A stretch of 64,000 nucleotides of DNA, taken from Spirochaetota bacterium. GTDB taxonomy: Bacteria; Spirochaetota; UBA4802; UB4802. The notes under the pieces were generated by a model that was not told where the DNA came from, did not search any database, and saw nothing but the letters and a program-made list of their open reading frames with translations. Shown one piece after another: positions 6,727 to 27,121 of this stretch. A program made the translations under genes and the position numbers. Within the stretch, counting starts at the first letter, position 1, and each line of letters starts with the position of its first letter. The stretch lies in contig JAOAIH010000004.1 of the NCBI GenBank assembly GCA_026414805.1, positions 15,808 to 79,807 of the forward strand, in the 5' to 3' direction.

Positions 6727-7344
6727 ATGTTTTCAATAATTATTTCAGCGCCATCAGGTGCAGGGAAAACAACATTAATAGAAAGGCTTCTTATTCAAAA
6801 TCCTATTTTTGAATTTGCAATATCAACAACTACCAGAACAAAGAGGGCAAACGAAACTGAAGGTAAAAGTTATCATTATGTGAGTTATGAAGAGTTTATG
6901 CAAATGGTAGATAAGGGTGAATTCTTGGAATGGGCCAAGGTGCATGATAATTATTACGGTACAACAAAAAAAGAAGTTGACAGAATAAAAGCACTTTCAA
7001 AAATACCTATCTTTGATGTAGATGTACAGGGTGCACGCAGTTTGCGTAATAAATTACAAAATGTTATATCAATATTTATTATTCCACCATCCATTCAGGA
7101 ATTAGAAAAACGTTTGCGGCACCGTTCAACTGAAACGGAATATCAAATAGCTGTTAGATTGAACAATGCACTAGTTGAATTACGCGAATATGTAAATTAT
7201 GATTATATTGTAGTAAATGATGATTTGCAAAAAGCTCTTGATGAACTCAATGCAATTTTAAAGACTGTTATACTTAAACGTGAATATATGGAATCAGTAG
7301 TTAAAAGATTATTGGAGGGTGTACATGATTATACCATTAGATAA
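6727..7344 (+). CDS. gmk: Guanylate kinase
   Basis: 205 aa. P-loop ISAPSGAGKTTL, GMP-binding region (YHYVSYEEF...GEFLEWAKVHDNYYGT). Confidence 0.9.
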   Translation: MFSIIISAPSGAGKTTLIERLLIQNPIFEFAISTTTRTKRANETEGKSYHYVSYEEFMQMVDKGEFLEWAKVHDNYYGTTKKEVDRIKALSKIPIFDVDVQGARSLRNKLQNVISIFIIPPSIQELEKRLRHRSTETEYQIAVRLNNALVELREYVNYDYIVVNDDLQKALDELNAILKTVILKREYMESVVKRLLEGVHDYTIR

Positions 7345-7528
7345 ATTGATTGCATTGGAAGATAACAGATATGTCTTTTCCTGTGCTGCCATGAAAGTAG
7401 TTGATAAATTAGGTAACATTGAAGGGTATCCTGAAAGTGATAAAAACTGGAAGGTTGTCCCCAATATTTTAAATTTAATGCTTAATAATATAGTTAAATA
7501 TGAATTTAAAGAAGAAATAAAAGATTAA
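7319..7528 (+). CDS. rpoZ: DNA-directed RNA polymerase subunit omega
   Basis: 69 aa. Omega-like core LIALEDNRYVFSCAAMKVVDKL. Follows gmk as in many bacteria. The true start may be the internal Met (MIIPLDKL). Confidence 0.6.
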   Translation: MYMIIPLDKLIALEDNRYVFSCAAMKVVDKLGNIEGYPESDKNWKVVPNILNLMLNNIVKYEFKEEIKD

Positions 7529-7625: not shown

Positions 7626-8534
7626 TTGAATAATAAAGCTGTTGTTCTTGTAGGGCCAACGGCATCCGGAAAAACACGCATATCCCTTGAAATAGCACAT
7701 GATGTTTTTGAGATAATATCAGTAGATTCAGCGCAGGTTTATAAGTATATGGACATTGGTACAGGGAAGGTTGCCCCGTACTATCGTTCTTTGATAACAC
7801 ACTATTGTATAGATATTGTTAATCCGGATTATTGGTTCACTGCTGGGGATTTTTGTAGAGAAGCCGAAAATGCACTAGAAAAAGTGAGACAACACAATAA
7901 ATTGCCTCTTTTTGTTGGGGGTACAGGGCTATATTTTCAGGCTTTCTTATATGGACTGGCTCAACTTCCAAAAATAGATGCAACGATAAAAAAACAGTTA
8001 CACGAGGAATTACAACAAAAGGGGCTTGAGGCTTTGTATACTGAACTGTTGCAGCATGATCCACAGTGGGCACATCGTATTCATCCAAATGATACTCAAA
8101 GGATTTTGCGTGGTTTAGAAGTCTTCAGAGCAACCGGTATTCCTCTATCAAAGTTTCTACAGTCTGAGCACAAAAAAAGTAATCTAGAAATTCTTATGAT
8201 AGCGCTGGATGTTGAAAGAGATGAATTGTACTTGCGAATTGAACGCCGGGTTGATGAAATGATAAGTAATGGATTTGTGGAAGAAGTTAAAAATTTGAGG
8301 GCAATGGGCTATACGGAAAAGTTTAATTCACAAAAGGCTATTGGTTATTTGCAGTTACATAAGGTTTTGCAAAATGAGTTGGAGCTTGAGGAAGCAATTA
8401 AGTTAATAAAACAGGAAACAAAGCATTATGCAAAACGGCAAATTACATGGTTTAAGCGCTATAACCCTTTATGGGTATCACCGAATAATATTAAAAAAAT
8501 AAGGGAAATAATAACGCAATGGTTATTCAATTAG
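7626..8534 (+). CDS. miaA: tRNA dimethylallyltransferase MiaA
   Basis: 302 aa. P-loop VLVGPTASGKT, DSAQVYKYMDIGTGK, conserved HYAKRQITWFK C-terminal region. Confidence 0.9.
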   Translation: MNNKAVVLVGPTASGKTRISLEIAHDVFEIISVDSAQVYKYMDIGTGKVAPYYRSLITHYCIDIVNPDYWFTAGDFCREAENALEKVRQHNKLPLFVGGTGLYFQAFLYGLAQLPKIDATIKKQLHEELQQKGLEALYTELLQHDPQWAHRIHPNDTQRILRGLEVFRATGIPLSKFLQSEHKKSNLEILMIALDVERDELYLRIERRVDEMISNGFVEEVKNLRAMGYTEKFNSQKAIGYLQLHKVLQNELELEEAIKLIKQETKHYAKRQITWFKRYNPLWVSPNNIKKIREIITQWLFN

Positions 8535-8718: not shown

Positions 8719-8949
8719 ATGGGCAAACAAACAAAAAATTTACAGGACACTTTTCTTAATGCTGCACGCAAAGATAAAGTGGAAATTACCATCTATCTTA
8801 TGAACGGCGTTCCGATCAAGGGGAAGGTTATCAGCTTTGATAGCTTTACAATTTTGGTTGAAGTTGACAAAAAGCAAAATCTTATCTATAAACATGCTAT
8901 ATCAACGATAATGCCGTCAAAGCCAGTTCAGTATAAAGATGAAGAATAA
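8719..8949 (+). CDS. hfq: RNA chaperone Hfq
   Basis: 76 aa. Sm1/Sm2 motifs ([42 protein letters not shown]...IYKHAISTI). Classic miaA-hfq order. Confidence 0.92.
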
Positions 8950-8952
8950 TAC

Positions 8953-9837
8953 ATGGGTAAAGTACAAAAAATTGTTGTTGCAGCGTTTATTATTGCTGCC
9001 CTTATTTATGTTTTTGTACGTGTAGTTGTGATTGTTGGAGATGGTGTAGTGGCAATTGTCACTGATAAAGAAGGTCAGGTATTAGGACAATTGCACAAAG
9101 GTGTTAATATAGTTCCTCAGGGGATAACTACTCACATTAAAGCACACTATATCCCACTGAATAATACATGTCATGTGGACATTACCATACCGGTTCCTCC
9201 ACTAGAAGTAATTAAAAGTGAACATTATTCTATTAAGATTCCTGTAGCTGTTACTTACAGGCTTAATCCGGGTCAATTATCACTTGATTTATACAAACTG
9301 TATTCAGATGCACAGTACCTGCCTCAACAAATTCAGCTACGATTACTTAGCAGTATTAAAGATAATATTGCCTTCCATCTTTATCCATACTACCAGTATA
9401 ATGTATTGCAAGCCAATATCAACAGGGAAATAGGGCAGGCGATAGCTCATGTTAAAGAATCTTTTATCAAAGAAGGCATACTGATACAAGATGCTACTGT
9501 GGGTGTCATCTATATGCCAGATTATGCTGTATATGCTGAGGGTAAAAAATTTTTACTTGAATTGCTGACACAGGAGAAATTGAATGCCATACAGCGTAAT
9601 GAATTGCAACATCAGCTCAAGCAAGAACAGATGCGAAATGAACAATATTTGGCCTATCTTGAAAAGATGTCACAAATTATTTCAAAAAACAAGGATATTT
9701 TGCAATATATTTATATTGACAAATTAGCGGATAATGTGAGGGTGATAGTTACTTCGGACAAAAATGTTCCATGGGATATAGCAAGTGAGAGTGGCTCAGA
9801 ATCTTTAAAGAAAGATTTTGATAATTTTAAAAAATAG
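8953..9837 (+). CDS. SPFH/band-7 (HflC/HflK-like) membrane protein, putative
   Basis: 294 aa. N-terminal transmembrane helix, then VVIVGDGVVAIVTDKEGQVLGQLHKGVNIVPQG..., which resembles the start of an SPFH domain. Position after hfq parallels hfq-hflXKC. The family assignment is only moderately supported. Confidence 0.45.
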   Translation: MGKVQKIVVAAFIIAALIYVFVRVVVIVGDGVVAIVTDKEGQVLGQLHKGVNIVPQGITTHIKAHYIPLNNTCHVDITIPVPPLEVIKSEHYSIKIPVAVTYRLNPGQLSLDLYKLYSDAQYLPQQIQLRLLSSIKDNIAFHLYPYYQYNVLQANINREIGQAIAHVKESFIKEGILIQDATVGVIYMPDYAVYAEGKKFLLELLTQEKLNAIQRNELQHQLKQEQMRNEQYLAYLEKMSQIISKNKDILQYIYIDKLADNVRVIVTSDKNVPWDIASESGSESLKKDFDNFKK

Positions 9838-9933
9838 TGGATTGGTGTATTAATTCCGTTGTATATTAATAATCAGATATAATAAATAAAGTATTTTTGT
9901 GACATATTTTTATAATAAGGAGAGTGAAACACT

Positions 9934-10029
9934 ATGCCCTGTGGTAGGAAGCGAAAACGCAGAAAGATTGCTAATCACAAACGGAAAAAACGAAGAAGAC
10001 TTAATCGTCACAAGAAGAAATTACGATAA
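9934..10029 (+). CDS. Tiny arginine/lysine-rich protein (31 aa), candidate ribosomal protein of the bS22 / mS38 (AURKAIP1-like) family
   Basis: ATG at 9934 preceded by AAGGAGAG (9918-9925) with ideal spacing. Translation is MPCGRKRKRRKIANHKRKKRRRLNRHKKKLR, stop TAA at 10027-10029, followed by a rho-independent terminator. The ORF track instead listed an alternative frame (9899..10084) that lacks these signals. Confidence 0.6.
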   Translation: MPCGRKRKRRKIANHKRKKRRRLNRHKKKLR

Positions 10030-10040
10030 TGTAAGTAGAG

Positions 10041-10081
10041 GAGAGATTGGCAGAAAAGGAAGTCAATCTCTTTTCTATTTT
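10041..10081 (+). terminator. Rho-independent terminator after the small basic ORF
   Basis: Stem GAGAGATTG (10041-10049) / CAATCTCTT (10064-10072) with a 14-nt loop, followed by TTTTCTATTTTT. Confidence 0.6.
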
Positions 10082-10102
10082 TAAATACAATAAGGTTGGA
10101 TA

Positions 10103-10831
10103 ATGCGCAGAAGAATTAAAACAAAATCAATTATAATCCCTGAGGCAAAGAAGACCTACTGGAAACGAAGGCCATCAGAAATTAGAGGCTATCAACGGGT
10201 TTTCTACTGCAATACTGAAAACGGTGATTACATCCGTGTGGATTATAATTTAAAAGATAAAAGGGTAAGGCTGTATCTGGAAGATAGCGAAGAAGGCGGA
10301 AATCCTTATTATGCGGTTATAGATAAAGGGCGCATTACTGCTGAACGCAACGCTACTTCAGGGCGACCAGTAAGTTTACGGGAAAAATTTGAAAAGCGTG
10401 CAGAACTCATATCAACCATTCCTAATAAAGATGTAATAAAACTTATCAATAAGCATTATGGAATAGGTGAAAGTGCTGAAGAGATTGCAGCTCGTCAGAA
10501 AAAAAGACAGGAAGAACTTGAAAGAACTCGTAAACGCTACTTCAAACCTGAAGAAGTTCCATCATTTGTTAAAAAAGAAACAATCACAGTATCAAAACGG
10601 AAGGTTAGAATACGTGATATGGTAGATATTGGCATAGGTGGTGTAAGTGTAGGTGGTATATATTTTTTAACTCTTGATTTTGTAAAGGCAGGCATTGCTT
10701 CAGCAGCATTTGGTATACTGCTTGCATTTGTTGATATCTTCATTAGAGAAAAAGAAACACTGTTACTTAAGACGTTGCTGTTTTTGGTTATTGGTATAGC
10801 ATTGTATATTTATGGTTATTTTATTTTATAA
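10103..10831 (+). CDS. Hypothetical membrane protein (basic cytoplasmic N-domain, two C-terminal transmembrane helices)
   Basis: 242-aa ORF with a ribosome-binding site. Hydrophobic C-terminus GIGGVSVGGIYFLTL...LLFLVIGIALYIYGYFIL. No known domain recognised. Confidence 0.5.
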   Translation: MRRRIKTKSIIIPEAKKTYWKRRPSEIRGYQRVFYCNTENGDYIRVDYNLKDKRVRLYLEDSEEGGNPYYAVIDKGRITAERNATSGRPVSLREKFEKRAELISTIPNKDVIKLINKHYGIGESAEEIAARQKKRQEELERTRKRYFKPEEVPSFVKKETITVSKRKVRIRDMVDIGIGGVSVGGIYFLTLDFVKAGIASAAFGILLAFVDIFIREKETLLLKTLLFLVIGIALYIYGYFIL

Positions 10832-20326: not shown

Positions 20327-23300
20327 TTGTATTTTCCAACCAAAACGATTATAGTAATTTTAGGTTATACTGCTTTTCTTATAATGAAGGTTGTATTCAT
20401 GGATAATCGTAAAAAAACACGTAAGCCGTCTAAAAGTGCAAGAAATCTAAAACAAAAGAAGACATTACCACCTACAAAAAAAATTTCACAAAAAGTGGAT
20501 CGTTTTGACCTTGTGGCAAATGAAGAGCTTACCATATTCAAAGAACTGGTAGAAAACTCATCATACGCTATCGGCATGTCCACGCCTCAGGGGAAGCATT
20601 ATTATCAGAATAAAGCATTTAGTGAGCTTTTTGGAGATATTGGGGATGATCCGCCTTCTACGTTGTATGTTGATAAAAAAATTGGAAGAGAAGTATTCAC
20701 AACAATTATGTCCGGAGGCTCATGGACCGGACAGGTAAAAATGTATGATAGAAATAAAAATATAATAGATGTGTACTTACGTGCTAATGCTATTAAAGAT
20801 GCTGCAGGGAAGGTTATAGGTTTAGTAGGCATCCACGAGGATATAACGACTATTAAATTAATGGAGAAAATTTTAAAAGAAAATGAGGAAAAATTTAGAG
20901 CCATCTTTGAATCAACAACTGATGCTGTGTTTATTATGAAAGATGATGTGTGCATTGATTGTAATCCCGCTACTCTGAAGATGTTCAAATGCTCACGCAA
21001 TGATATTATTGGTGCTTCAGCTCACCAGTTTCACCCGCAATTCCAGCCCAATGGGAAAAAATCAAAAGAATTGGCACTACGCTATATTCAAAAAGCAAAA
21101 AAAGGCATTCCCCAACATTTTGAATGGCAACATTTGAAATTGGATGGCACCCCATTCTATACAGAGGTAAGTCTAAATAGACTGGTCTTTGGCAAAGAAG
21201 TATTCTTGCTGGCAATAGTACGCGATATTACTCATCGTAAGGAAATAGAAACCCGATTGAAGAAGAGTGAACAGTGGTACAAGGCGTTATTTGATACTTC
21301 GCCAGACGTAATTATCATTTACGATTTTAAAGGCAATATTTTTGCTGCAAATCATAGAGCACGTGAATTATACGGTGTTGGGACTATCGGTGAATTGTTA
21401 ACTGAAGTCACAAATATACTGGATTTGCTGGATGAAAACGATAAAAAGAAAGCCATAGCCACTATGGAAAATACTCTTAAAACAGGATATGCAGCAGGGA
21501 ATGTTTATACAATTAAAAATAAAAAAGGCCAAAAGATTCAGGTTGAAGTTCATTCTTCAGTTTTGCCAGATAATGAAGGTAATCCTCAGGCGTTTATAAG
21601 TATTATCAGAGATATTTCTGAGCGTATCAAATCAGAAAAAGAGTTAAAGGATAGGGAATCAAAATACAGAGCATTATTTGAAAATGCTACTGAAACCATC
21701 ATGGTGATACAGGATGGCATGATTAAATTGTTCAATAACCGTGCTTCAGAGCTAAGTGGTTATTCACCAGAAGAATTAGCGTCACGCTCATTTATAGATT
21801 TTATACATCCCGAAGACCGTGAGATGGTATTAAATACGTACCTACAGAGAATACAGGGTAAACAGGCTCCAACACAGTATAATTTTAAGATAATTACAAA
21901 AAATCAGGAAATACGGTGGGTTGAAACACATGTTGTTTTGATTGAATGGGAAGGCAAGCCCGCAACATTAAATTTTCTTACTGATATAACAGAACGTAAA
22001 ATTATTGAAGACCAGATAAAAGAAAATGAAGCAAAATACCGTACACTCTTTAATTGTGCAAATGATGCAATCTTTATAATGGATAAAGAAATATTTATTG
22101 ATTGCAATTATAAAACGCTGGAAATGTTTGGATGCACCAGGGAACAGATTATAGGTACGCCTCCATATCAATTTTCCCCAGAATATCAGCCTGATGGAAG
22201 AAAATCAAAAGAAAAAGCACTGGAGAAGATTCATAAAGCTCTTGAAGGGTATCCTCAGTTTTTTGAATGGCAGCATTGCAGATATGACAAAACCCCTTTT
22301 GAAGCTGAAGTAAGCCTTAACGCCTTTGAGCTTGGTGGCAAACAGTATATTCAGGCGATAGTTCGTGATATAACCGAACGTAAAAAAGCAGAAAATATGC
22401 TCCGAAGAAGTGAAGAACAGTACCGAATGCTGGTGGAAACTGCAAAGGAGGGTATTTGGAAAATTGAAAATGATGTTACTACCTATGTAAATAAAGCAAT
22501 GGCTGATATGATGGGGTATACACAAGAAGAGATGATGGGAAAATCTATTTATGATTTTATGTTTGATGAAGATATCCCAGAATTAAAAGAAAGGTTAAAA
22601 AAACGAGCAAAAGGGATTGATGAGGTATACGAAGGCAGACGGAAAAAGAAAGATGGCAGCCCATTGTGGGCGATAGTTTCAGCAAAAGCAATCATAGATG
22701 AAAAAGGTAATTATGTTGGTTCTTTTGCTCTTTATACTGATATAACTGAAAGAAAAAAAGCCGAAGCTGAAATAGTAAACAAACAGAAGCTACTTGAAGA
22801 TATCATTGCATATACTCCTGATCCCACTCTGGTGATTGATAAAAATGGTATCGTTATAGCTTGCAATAAAGCTATGGAAGAGTTGTTGGGGGTAAATGCC
22901 AGTGAATTGATTGGTAAGGGAAATTATGAATATGCATTACCATTGTATGGGGTGCGCAGGCCAATTTTAATAGATTTAGCTTTGCATTATGATGGTGAAA
23001 TAGCAAAAAAATATACATATGTCAAAAAAGAAAAGGATGTACTGATTGCAGAAACTACCATAGATAACTTCAGAGGCAAAAAAGTATATTTATGGGGCAA
23101 GGCTGCACCACTGTATAATAAAGATGGAAATATAATAGGAGCTATCGAAACTATCCGTGACATAACCGAGCAAAAACAAAATGAACTGGCACTCAAGGAG
23201 AGTGAGCAAAAATTTAGAGAAATATTTGACTCAACTACTGATTCAATTATGATTGATGAAATTACTGAAACAGGTGCCAGAATCATTGATTGTAACCAGC

Positions 23301-26300
23301 AAACTTTGGAAATGTATGGATATTCCTCAAAAGAAGAAATGCTTTCGGGCAATATTGGTGATTTAAGTGCAAATATTTATCCATATACAGAAGAGGAAGC
23401 ACAGGAAAAAGTTGCTCTTGCATTAAAAGGCGAAGTTCCTACCTTCGAGTGGTTGGCAAAAAAGAAAAATGGTGAAGTATTCTGGGTAGAAGTAACACTT
23501 AAAAAAGTAACACTTGCAGGCAAGGAAAGAGTATTGGCAATAGTACGTGATATAAATGAAAGAAAAAAAACAGAAGAAAAGCTGACTCTTTATAGTAAAA
23601 GATTAAATACTATTATTGAAGCTGTAAATATTGGTACGTGGGAATGGAATGTGCAGACGGGTGAGCTTGTTTTAAATGAGGTCTGGGCAAATATGGTTGG
23701 GTATACATTACAGGAGCTATCGCCCATATCATTACAAACATGGGAATCATTAACCCACCCTGAGGATTTAAAAAAAGCTTATGATACGCTGGAAAAACAC
23801 TTCAATGGCCAATTGCCGTATTACGAATGCGAAATAAGAATGAAACACAAAAATGGTAATTGGATATGGATTCTTGATAAAGGCAGAGTGGTGATGTGGA
23901 CTAACGATGGCAAACCGCTCATGATGTATGGTACCCATACCGATATTACAAAATTAAAAGAAACTGAACAGGCCTTACGCCAATCAAAAGAGTTTATTAA
24001 TAATGTCCTTGATACTATACCTGTAAGAGTATTCTGGAAAGATAGGCAATTGAGATATTTAGGGTGCAACAGGGCATTTGCTGTTGATGCTGGGTATGAT
24101 GACCCTGCTCAAATTGTTGGAAAGACAGATTTTGATATGGCCTGGAAACAGCAAGCAGAGCTCTACAGGAAAGATGATAAAGATGTAATAGAAACTGGGA
24201 TTGCGAAATTGGGTTATGAGGAACCTCAAAATACGCCTGATGGTAACATATTATGGCTGCGTACCAGCAAAGTACCATTGCGCAATGAAAGTGGTGAAAT
24301 TATAGGCGTGCTTGGAACGTATGAGGATATTACAGAAGCAAAAAAAGCTGAAAAAGATCTTAAAGACAGCGAAGAACGGTACCGTAATTTAGCTGAATCA
24401 ACACAGGATTGTATAGCTTTGCATGATATGAATGGTGTTATTCAATACGTAAATCAGGCTGCAGTAAATATTACTGGATATTCACGTGAAGAGATAATTG
24501 GTAAAAATATAATCATGTTCATTCCACGTAAGTACCGGCGTTCAATTTATGAACGGCACACAAAGCGGCTTAAAGGATTTATGGGTATAGATCAGTTTGA
24601 AGCAGAAATGATTAATAAATATGGAGTTTTAATACCTGTACAGGTGACTTCAACACCTATTGTTAAGGATAATAAGATTGTATCAATAATGATTGTTGTT
24701 CATGACCTTACTCAGCGCAAAATAGCTGAGGAGTTATTGATAAAGAATAAAGAGCGTCTGGAAGCTGCAATATCTATACTGCAATATGATGCACATGATA
24801 CTCGTGAATTAATTGATTATGTGTTGAATCAGGCTTTGCTGTTAACAGGGAGCAAAATTGGTTTTATCATGAGTTATGATAACAAAGAAAAGAAATTCTC
24901 TGTTGAAGCATGGTCAAAAGAAGTCATGTATGAATGTACTATAATAGAGAAGCCAGAAGTGTATTATCTGCATAATGCCGGTATATGGGCTGAAGCGGTC
25001 CGTCAGGCACGGCCAGTTATTATTAATAATTATAAAGAGCCACATACAGCAAAGAAAGGCTATCCAGAAGGCCATGTGGATATTATCCGGTATTTGGGTA
25101 TACCAGTATTTAAAAATAAAGAGATAGTTGCCACTGTTGGTGTTGCCAATAAAGAAACTGATTATACTGAAATAGATGTTTTGCAATTAACATTGCTTAT
25201 GGATGCAGCATGGAAATCAATTGAGCGTTTGGAGATAAAACTGGCTCTTTCTGAAAGTGAAGCAAAATTCAGAACGTTAGCTGATTTAAGCCCAACGGCT
25301 ATTATGATGTATCAGGATGATAAATTTGTATACGTTAATAAGGCTGCTGAGCGCATTTCAGGTTACAGTTTTGAAGAAGCAGTTACTATGGATTTTTGGT
25401 CTATTGTACATCCTGATGATTTGCAGATGATTATTGAAAAAGGAAAGAAACGACAAGCGGGTCAACATGGATTAGATAGTTATGAGTTCAGGATTATTAC
25501 AAGGGGTGGGGAAATTAAATGGGTCTATATCACCAGTGCAACTGTGCAATATAGAGGTAGACCTGCTGGTCTTGTTTCAGTGTTGGATATAACCGACCGT
25601 AAAAAAGCAGAGGACGCCCTGTATGAAGAAAAGGAAAAACTACAGATAACTCTACAAAGTATTGGTGACGGAGTAATAGCAACAGATACTCAAGGTAAAG
25701 TGGTGATTATAAATGCAGCTGCACAGCGGCTTACAGGGTATTCCCAGATAGAAGCGGAAGGGAAACCTCTTACAGAGATCTTTACAATTATTCATGAGCT
25801 ATCGGGCAAACCTTTAGAAAACCCGGTTGAAAAAGTATTAGCAACAGGAAAAGTATATGAGCTTTCTAATCATACAGTCCTGGTGGCAAAAGACGGTACA
25901 CGACGTATTATTGCTGATAGTGCTGCACCTATTAAAGATGCTTCTGGAAATATTCTGGGAGTTGTACTTGTATTTAGAGATATGACCGAAAAACTACAGC
26001 TAATTGAGCAATCGCAACGTGCACAGCGGTTAGAATCATTAGGGATTCTGGCTGCAGGTATTGCCCATGATTTCAACAATATTCTGGAGGGTGTGTTTGG
26101 GTATATTGGACTTGCTAATGCATATGTAAAAGATGCCAATATATCTGATTTGCTATCACAGGCACTTAAGTCAATCCAGCGTGCAAAAGGTTTGACCGGG
26201 CAACTTTTGACATTTTCAAAAGGTGGACAACCGGTTAAAAAAGTGCAGTCAATTATACCTTTATTGGAAGATACAGTACAGTTTGCAATTAGTGGTTCAA

Positions 26301-27121
26301 ATATTAAAGCGCAATTCTATTTTGATGAAAATCTTAATAATGCTAATTTTGACTATAACCAGATTGCACAGGTAATTGAAAATGTAGTTATCAATGCTGT
26401 TCAAGCAATGCCAATGGGAGGTACTATAACTGTAAGTGCAAACAATGTATCATTTAGTGGCAATGAACATCCATTGCTTGAGGGTGATTACATTAGAATA
26501 ACTATTGCTGACGAGGGTGTAGGCATTCCTAAAGACCTACTGCCTAAAATATTTGATCCTTTCTTTACTACAAAAAGTTTGGGACAAGGCTTGGGGCTTG
26601 CAACAAGCTATTCAATTATTACACGGCATAATGGAACAATAGAAGTTGAATCAGAACCAGGAAAAGGAACAACGGTGTATATTTATCTGCCAGCCTCAAA
26701 AAGTAGAGTACAAGATGTACAAAAGAAAGAAGAAAAGAAGATACTGAAAGGAGGAAAAATACTTATTCTTGATGATGAACCTACAATGCGACAGATTATG
26801 CTACAATTTTTAGAACATCTGGGTTTTGAAGGAGTAGCTGTTGACAATGGAAACGATGCAATTGAAATATTTTTAAGGGAAAAAGAAAAAGGAAGGCCAT
26901 TTGATGCATTAATCTTTGATATGACAATAAAGGGAGGTATGGGTGGCAAAGAAGCAATTGCCGAAATACGAAAATATGATTCCAAAGTGCCTGCATTTGT
27001 CATGAGCGGGTATAGTGAAGACTATGTAATGGTACACCCCCAGGAACATGGATTTAACGCTGGTATTAGCAAACCGTTCACACTTGAAGAATTGGAAGCA
27101 TTGCTGGCAAAGTATTTTTAA
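20327..27121 (+). CDS. Giant multi-PAS/GAF hybrid sensor histidine kinase (HisKA + HATPase_c + receiver)
   Basis: 2264 aa. N-terminal hydrophobic segment, more than 12 PAS/PAC repeats separated by recurring ITERKKAE-type linkers, a GAF-like segment, an H-box ([16 protein letters not shown]), N/G1/G2 ATPase boxes, and a C-terminal receiver domain (ILILDDEP...[12 protein letters not shown]). The exact start (20327 or an in-frame Met nearby) is uncertain. Confidence 0.9.

Follow-up and report, generated by a model that had tools for sequence, protein, structure and literature searches.

Does the 31-codon ORF at 9934..10029 of the window (the whole 64,000-nt stretch of DNA analysed here, with a G+C content of 36%) encode a ribosomal protein, or does the real gene at this place lie in the longer, 61-aa ORF that overlaps it in another frame? 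A sequence-only reading had singled out the shorter ORF as unannotated and as a candidate for the tiny ribosomal protein bS22. The present analysis suggests that this ORF is a genuine bS22 gene of the Bacteroidota/Spirochaetota type, a reading to which, from sequence comparison, we assign a probability of about 0.93. The features of the locus are these:

7626-8534, + strand: miaA (Pfam IPPT, 6.4e-84)
8719-8949, + strand: hfq (Pfam Hfq, 2.4e-31)
8953-9837, + strand: gene for an SPFH/Band-7-like membrane protein (Pfam Band_7, 9.6e-5, just below the cut-off)
9899..10084, + strand: 61-aa ORF with a GTG start, overlapping the bS22 ORF in another frame and judged not to be a gene
9917..9924, + strand: Shine-Dalgarno (SD) site AAGGAGAG, read from the sequence
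9925..9927, + strand: in-frame TGA stop, read from the sequence
9934..10029, + strand: rpsV-like gene, probably for 30S ribosomal protein bS22 (FCB/Spirochaete type), 31 aa (PDB match, HMM, conservation)
10033..10080, + strand: hairpin followed by a T-run, probable terminator (RNAfold; counterpart in the related locus L044)

The ORF runs from ATG to TAA on the forward strand, and its product is, as had been read, MPCGRKRKRRKIANHKRKKRRRLNRHKKKLR, a peptide with a pI of 12.0 in which 19 of the 31 residues (61%) are lysine or arginine. The TGA at 9925-9927 is in frame and lies two codons 5′ of the ATG, so that the ATG at 9934 is the sole possible start; the stop-to-stop segment around the ORF, which begins at 9928, is only 33 codons long. 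The strong ribosome-binding site described in the sequence-only reading is present, with a spacing to the ATG of 9 nt and not the 8 nt given there. The terminator hairpin that it had placed at 10041-10081 is likewise real: RNAfold of 10030-10095 puts it at 10033-10080, with a 19-bp stem (10033-10051/10062-10080), a 10-nt loop and a free energy of -23.2 kcal/mol (z = -7.3, 0 of 200 shuffles folding equally well). Its 3′ arm leads into the T-rich tract TTTTCTATTTTT, and hairpin and T-run together probably act as the intrinsic terminator for bS22 transcription. A simple terminator scan, which allows loops of 3-8 nt only, reported none at the gene, the 10-nt loop being beyond its limit. No promoter-like site on the + strand was returned by a scan of 9500-10500, and no Rfam family and no rRNA were found in the whole window.

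The flanking genes in GenBank, which come from a MAG labelled "Spirochaetes bacterium," encode MCX8122852.1 (SPFH-domain protein) and MCX8122853.1 (hypothetical, N3F66_01655). As the two accession numbers leave no gap between them and the exact 31-aa peptide is not among the proteins of a 15-billion-protein collection, the gene appears to be without annotation in the source record. That it had been missed by annotation pipelines, as the sequence-only reading proposed, is in keeping with the failure of curated models to detect this type of bS22 in the tests given below.

The identity of the product rests on proteins that have been seen in ribosomes. A phmmer search of the 31-aa peptide against all PDB chains gave three matches in total, every one a cryo-EM-verified bS22 chain and each aligned without gaps from residue 1: Borrelia burgdorferi 8FMW chain V (E 1.2e-7, residues 1-28 of 28), Flavobacterium johnsoniae 7JIL chain 5 (E 2.8e-7) and Porphyromonas gingivalis 9I5V chain 10 (E 4e-5). 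The alignments span residues 1-28/29 of both sequences and are in effect full length, which bears out the bS22-like identity proposed earlier. Ungapped identity is 21/27 to the Borrelia protein and 20-21/28 to those of F. johnsoniae and P. gingivalis. Shuffled versions of the peptide average 5.4-5.7 identities (sd 1.9, maximum 14), and since none of 20,000 attains the observed value (z ~8), composition alone is ruled out as the cause of the likeness. M1, P2, G4, H15, N24 and H26 occupy the same positions in the window peptide and in all three verified proteins, and C3 and I12 are additionally common to the window and Borrelia peptides. The resemblance that had been noted in the HK(R/K)(R/K)K core holds, and it belongs to a longer signature, MP(C/S/N)G...K(I/M/V)xxHKRKK...NRHKK, which is complete in the window ORF, itself a stand-alone ORF in the size class of ~28-31 codons. 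Four positions, R10, N14, R21 and L23, deviate from the family consensus. In the AlphaFold2 model residues 4-30 form one helix (pLDDT 94.5), in agreement with bS22 in ribosome structures, which is helical; the kink of ribosome-bound bS22 is absent from this model of the free peptide. Judged by these alignments, bb0822 of Borrelia and Fjoh_1533 of Flavobacterium are orthologues of the window gene, and it is this orthology to structure-verified FCB/Spirochaete proteins, not any curated model, that justifies the name bS22.

Curated models were indeed of no help. The search with the bS22 and AURKAIP1/COX24 profiles that had been suggested as a check gave no match: against Pfam and NCBIfam, including PF08213 (COX24_C, cut-off 23 bits) and NF047430 (ribo_bS22, cut-off 34 bits), the 31-aa ORF had no hits even at E <= 10, and it is not a member of either model. 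This negative result is uninformative, because the cryo-EM-verified bS22 proteins of Borrelia and Flavobacterium likewise return no match to PF08213 or NF047430 at E <= 10. The P. gingivalis protein reaches 11.7 bits, under the curated cut-off, and the only control to pass both models is the mycobacterial one, at 46.2 and 62.6 bits (the M. smegmatis sequence used here was entered by hand). This blind spot may help to explain the missing annotation of the window gene. A purpose-built family HMM, trained on 57 distinct peptides, all from other genomes, scores the window ORF at 53.7-54.0 bits and the verified bS22 proteins at 51.4-53.8 bits, and in a six-frame scan of the window (1732 segments) it recovers the bS22 ORF with an E-value of 1.7e-15, the runner-up reaching 6.8 bits. 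The M. smegmatis protein, again as entered by hand, scores -5 bits. From these scores, 51.4-53.8 bits for the verified proteins versus -5 bits for the mycobacterial one, two sequence families can be seen to go under the name bS22, and the window ORF, as far as sequence can tell, is in the Bacteroidota/Spirochaetota one.

The link to mycobacterial bS22 and mitochondrial mS38 (AURKAIP1/Cox24) drawn in the sequence-only reading therefore has to be divided. Like the window protein, the actinobacterial and mitochondrial proteins are tiny, very basic and helical, and in the literature they occupy the same h44-h45 pocket (PMC7797042, PMC10618245). At the level of profiles, however, there is no detectable relationship to the window ORF (no matches to PF08213 or NF047430). 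The eukaryotic cytosolic protein eL41, a ~25-aa, K/R-rich single helix, sits in the equivalent small-subunit pocket (PMC10618245, PMC12123416), but it is shorter and unbent and belongs to another domain of life. The window protein is thus linked to mycobacterial bS22, mS38 and eL41 by position and shape and by no sequence similarity that could be detected, and convergence of the bS22 types has been raised previously (PMC12123416). On balance we lean, by a modest degree, towards the view that the Bacteroidota/Spirochaetota bS22 is a separate family, possibly a convergent occupant of the pocket, that is widespread and often missed by annotation. If so, the window gene exemplifies a widespread and often unannotated ribosomal protein of the FCB group and Spirochaetota.

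The closest comparison for the reading frame is provided by L001, a Logan contig from run SRR7976356 on which hfq, the SPFH gene and the bS22 ORF follow one another as in the window. The two SPFH proteins share only 52% identity, and the intergenic region is unalignable save for ~30 nt around the SD site, where the stretch TATAATAAGGAGAGTGAAACA is preserved. The peptide is identical over all 31 aa, with 7 nucleotide differences, every one of which is synonymous. In L044, a syntenic Spirochaetota MAG, bS22 is 86% identical and 10 of the 15 differing codons are synonymous. A degenerate DNA pattern for the peptide, with Cys required at position 3, matches the window once (0.00 expected), and when each GTDB species was represented by a single genome, a scan with it yielded at least 120 loci, 13 of those listed being in Spirochaetota. 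At all 120 loci listed the ORF is 29-35 codons long and ends just after NRHKK, and among the matches listed the peptides are ~80% conserved across phyla. The pattern presupposes the peptide, so that conservation statistics of the GTDB set are partly circular; the L001 and L044 comparisons escape this circularity, as does a test confined to the ten codons that the pattern leaves open. In the 121 distinct DNA versions among the matches listed, these free codons have an entropy of 0.66/0.37/1.62 for their first/second/third positions, with 2.5 synonymous differences for every nonsynonymous one.

In the Spirochaetota the 13 listed loci are those of Borreliella turdi, several Treponema, a Sphaerochaeta and unclassified MAGs. 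The bulk of the remaining listed loci are in Bacteroidota (Chitinophagales, Cytophagales, Saprospiraceae, Flavobacteriales), and a further set carries the labels Ignavibacteria, Chlorobiota, Rhodothermales, Marinimicrobia, Cloacimonadota, WOR-3, Latescibacterota and "PVC group" bacterium. For the Latescibacterota loci a binning error is unlikely, since the contigs in question are of megabase scale. Presence of the family in several candidate phyla of the FCB group is apparently mildly new, being wider than in PMC13000457. As for the claims made earlier about distribution, the statement that bS22 is known from mycobacteria and Bacteroidetes is outdated: a 2026 paper still places the protein in "Mycobacteria and Bacteroidia" (PMC13000457), and yet bS22 was found in the spirochaete ribosome of Borrelia in 2023, by authors who predicted that more unannotated copies exist (PMC10618245). 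Spirochaetota are thus already known to have bS22, and the proposed extension of its distribution stands within the phylum and falls at phylum level. Two records are odd in their labels: L029 (CALPIT020000020.1, a "Streptomyces griseus" MAG) and L077 (CAZPPM010000123.1, a "Citrobacter" MAG) carry bS22 of the Bacteroidota type, of the Chitinophagaceae kind and without an SD site, and judging from these sequences they are probably mis-binned Bacteroidota contigs.

Translation signals follow the phylogenetic divide. An SD-like 4-mer lies upstream of the ORF at 15 of 15 Spirochaetota loci and, among the matches listed, at 22 of 27 other non-Bacteroidia loci versus 4 of 80 Bacteroidia loci. Bacteroidia are reported to lack SD sequences (PMC7797042, PMC13000457), and the pattern fits this report as would be expected of a genuinely translated gene. 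The start codon is GTG, directly after a strong AAGGAG, in 10 of the 13 GTDB spirochaete bS22 genes listed (eleven spirochaete loci are named with this count: L024, L026, L033, L037, L038, L048, L062, L072, L073, L098 and L102), as it is in Borrelia bS22 (PMC10618245); the window, L001, L044 and L039 have ATG. GTG starts may add to the failures of bS22 annotation. Downstream, in L044, the closest syntenic genome, a hairpin whose stem is identical to that in the window, AGAGATTGGC...CAATCTCT, occupies the corresponding position, and a hairpin with a T-run also follows bS22 in the Spirochaetota loci L039, L062, L072, L098 and L102. In public databases, members of the family are named "hypothetical protein" or, occasionally, "AURKAIP1/COX24 domain-containing protein." A phmmer search of 1.84 billion representative proteins gave 42 weak matches, the best with an E-value of 9e-7 for this very short query; the library holds one representative per 50%-identity cluster and may collapse so conserved a family. 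Many of the protein-database matches are products of 41-88 aa that carry the peptide at their extreme C terminus, from which it seems that gene callers often extend the bS22 ORF upstream and that start sites are probably mis-annotated.

The gene neighbourhood is shared in part. By Pfam, the local order is yicC-like, gmk, a 69-aa ORF, miaA, hfq, SPFH-like, bS22, a gene for a 242-aa protein and, on the opposite strand, PAP2. The arrangement of miaA, hfq and the SPFH gene in the window and in L044 recalls the miaA-hfq-hflXKC cluster of Escherichia coli. The gap between the SPFH-like gene and the bS22 ORF is 96 nt, and bS22 may be co-transcribed with miaA-hfq-SPFH or have its own promoter in this gap. 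L044 shares the order (a 159-aa ORF upstream of yicC, then gmk, miaA, hfq, SPFH, bS22 and the 242-aa gene), with neighbour proteins that are 27-72% identical to their window counterparts. In Borreliella turdi (L024, 1451-2470) and in L026 and L062 (one Spirochaetaceae MAG and one Treponema MAG), bS22 immediately follows miaA; in two Latescibacterota (L078, L081), miaA comes after bS22. At other loci bS22 stands beside murD-like genes, dxs or unrelated genes, and further spirochaetes are without miaA linkage. A universal operon context for bS22 was rejected, as the neighbours vary among the loci listed.

These data bear directly on what else the locus might be. The rival 61-aa ORF, whose existence in the other frame had been correctly reported, is the longer of the two and is open in the window, and it could be supposed that it is the real gene, the 31-aa frame being incidental to it. 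The same seven changes in L001 that are silent in bS22 nevertheless alter amino acids of the 9899..10084 frame, and its GTG start has become GAT there. Within the homologous 84 nt the alternative frame is broken by a stop at 73 of the 121 loci listed, it has no SD site of its own, and it passes through the terminator hairpin. Its product has no Pfam or NCBIfam match and no similarity in the PDB, and it scores -2.4 bits with the family HMM. Conservation therefore lies where the sequence-only reading had placed it: to judge from these substitutions, the bS22 frame is under purifying selection and the 9899..10084 frame is not. The lost start, the stops and the lack of similarity refute the 61-aa ORF as a gene in practice, and its probability is close to nil. 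It could also be argued that the 31-aa ORF arose by chance, as a low-complexity ORF in an A/G-rich spacer, or that it is a leader peptide or RNA element for the 242-aa gene, its likeness to bS22 being one of K/R composition. Peptides with 61% K+R do look alike, the curated HMMs have no match, and the ORF ends only 73 nt before the next one. Shuffles that preserve composition, however, never come near the observed identity, the marker residues other than K and R keep their exact positions, and all seven L001 changes are synonymous. Moreover, an ORF of fixed length recurs in at least 120 genomes beside unrelated neighbours, no Rfam family matches, and a strong hairpin with a T-run lies between bS22 and the downstream gene. 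An origin by chance or a leader function is thus scarcely credible, and a genuine bS22 gene remains much the better account.

The existence of the gene, purifying selection in the bS22 frame and orthology to proteins of known ribosome structures are established by these comparisons; the role of the product on the ribosome is a reading from its verified orthologues, by analogy with which it would bind the ribosome of its own host and exert functional effects there. In Borrelia, bS22 contacts h2, h27, h44, h45 and H68, and bb0822 has no transposon insertions and is grouped with essential-gene candidates (PMC10618245). Flavobacterium bS22 lies between h44 and h45 with its C-terminal lysines towards the 50S subunit (PMC7797042, PMC13000457), and the ribosome pocket and contacts of the P. 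gingivalis protein have been described (PMC12123416). In the model that we propose for the window gene, the hairpin at 10033-10080 would end the mRNA and the SD site at 9917-9924 would direct its translation into a 31-residue peptide with a pI of 12 that is predicted to form one long α-helix. This peptide would insert into the pocket formed by 16S h2/h27/h44/h45, beneath the platform and adjoining the decoding center; its C-terminal Lys/Arg tail may reach H68/H70 of 23S rRNA as an extra intersubunit contact, and the bound peptide would neutralize phosphate charge and stabilize h44. In mycobacteria the effect of bS22 there shapes the aminoglycoside-binding site, and deletion of M. smegmatis bS22, a structural analogue, has been found to increase sensitivity to kanamycin (bioRxiv 10.1101/2023.03.31.535098). 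It is conceivable that the window protein, as a true bS22 orthologue, acts mainly off the ribosome, as a nucleic-acid-binding or assembly chaperone peptide, or binds only conditionally: F. johnsoniae bS22 is present in 70S complexes and absent from isolated 30S subunits (PMC13000457), which indicates that binding can be conditional, and the window protein departs from the consensus at four positions. Yet the three orthologues seen in ribosomes, which come from two phyla including Spirochaetota itself, all lie in the same 30S pocket, and ~80% conservation across phyla fits a fixed rRNA partner. We thus regard a mainly off-ribosome or conditional role as improbable and a bS22 that resides on the ribosome as the expected one.

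Comparison with the known systems places the window gene nearest to Borrelia. The Borrelia protein (bb0822, 8FMW_V) is from the same phylum, shares with the window protein the N-terminal MPCGRKRK as well as HKRKK and NRHKK among its 21/27 identical residues, and is encoded by a gene that was likewise unannotated in its genome (PMC10618245). The two proteins differ at residues 9, 10, 13, 14, 20 and 23, and the Borrelia gene starts with GTG where the window has ATG. In Borreliella (L024), as in the window, the gene has an SD site upstream and lies downstream of miaA on the same strand, but there miaA is immediately upstream, whereas in the window hfq and the SPFH gene lie between. Of the two, the Borrelia protein is the one that has been seen in a ribosome. 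The Bacteroidota proteins (Fjoh_1533, 7JIL_5; P. gingivalis, 9I5V/9I5X) belong to the same family, with 29-31 aa and an equal family-HMM score. Position 3 is Ser or Asn in F. johnsoniae and P. gingivalis and Cys in the window, as it also is at many other Bacteroidota loci listed; and Bacteroidia bS22 genes are mostly without an SD site (4 of 80 listed have one), in contrast to the strong SD site of the window gene.

For the source genome, the outcome is the addition of one missing ribosomal protein gene, and the understanding of how bS22 works is left unchanged. The failure of curated models on bS22 of the FCB/Spirochaete type is a mildly new observation; as a result of it, such genes are left out, named "hypothetical" or given over-extended starts. 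A dedicated model would be easy to make, since the HMM already built parts members (51-54 bits) from background (<7 bits), and it would close this gap and permit a survey of the bacteria that carry bS22, a protein of interest in that it adjoins the aminoglycoside site and the subunit interface.

Three other ORFs of the window deserve mention. The 69-aa ORF at 7319-7528 (+) lies before miaA and shares its first part with the 3′ end of gmk; it has no Pfam match, but L044 has a counterpart with 56% identity over 64 aa. Its location next to gmk and the presence of an "NRY...AA" stretch suggest that it may encode a divergent omega subunit of RNA polymerase. The 242-aa protein encoded at 10103-10831 (+), 73 nt past the bS22 ORF, belongs to no Pfam family; it has a basic N terminus and a hydrophobic C-terminal part, and its counterpart in L044 is 44% identical and keeps its position. 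Finally, the ORF list contains a 2264-aa ORF with a TTG start at 20327-27121 (+).
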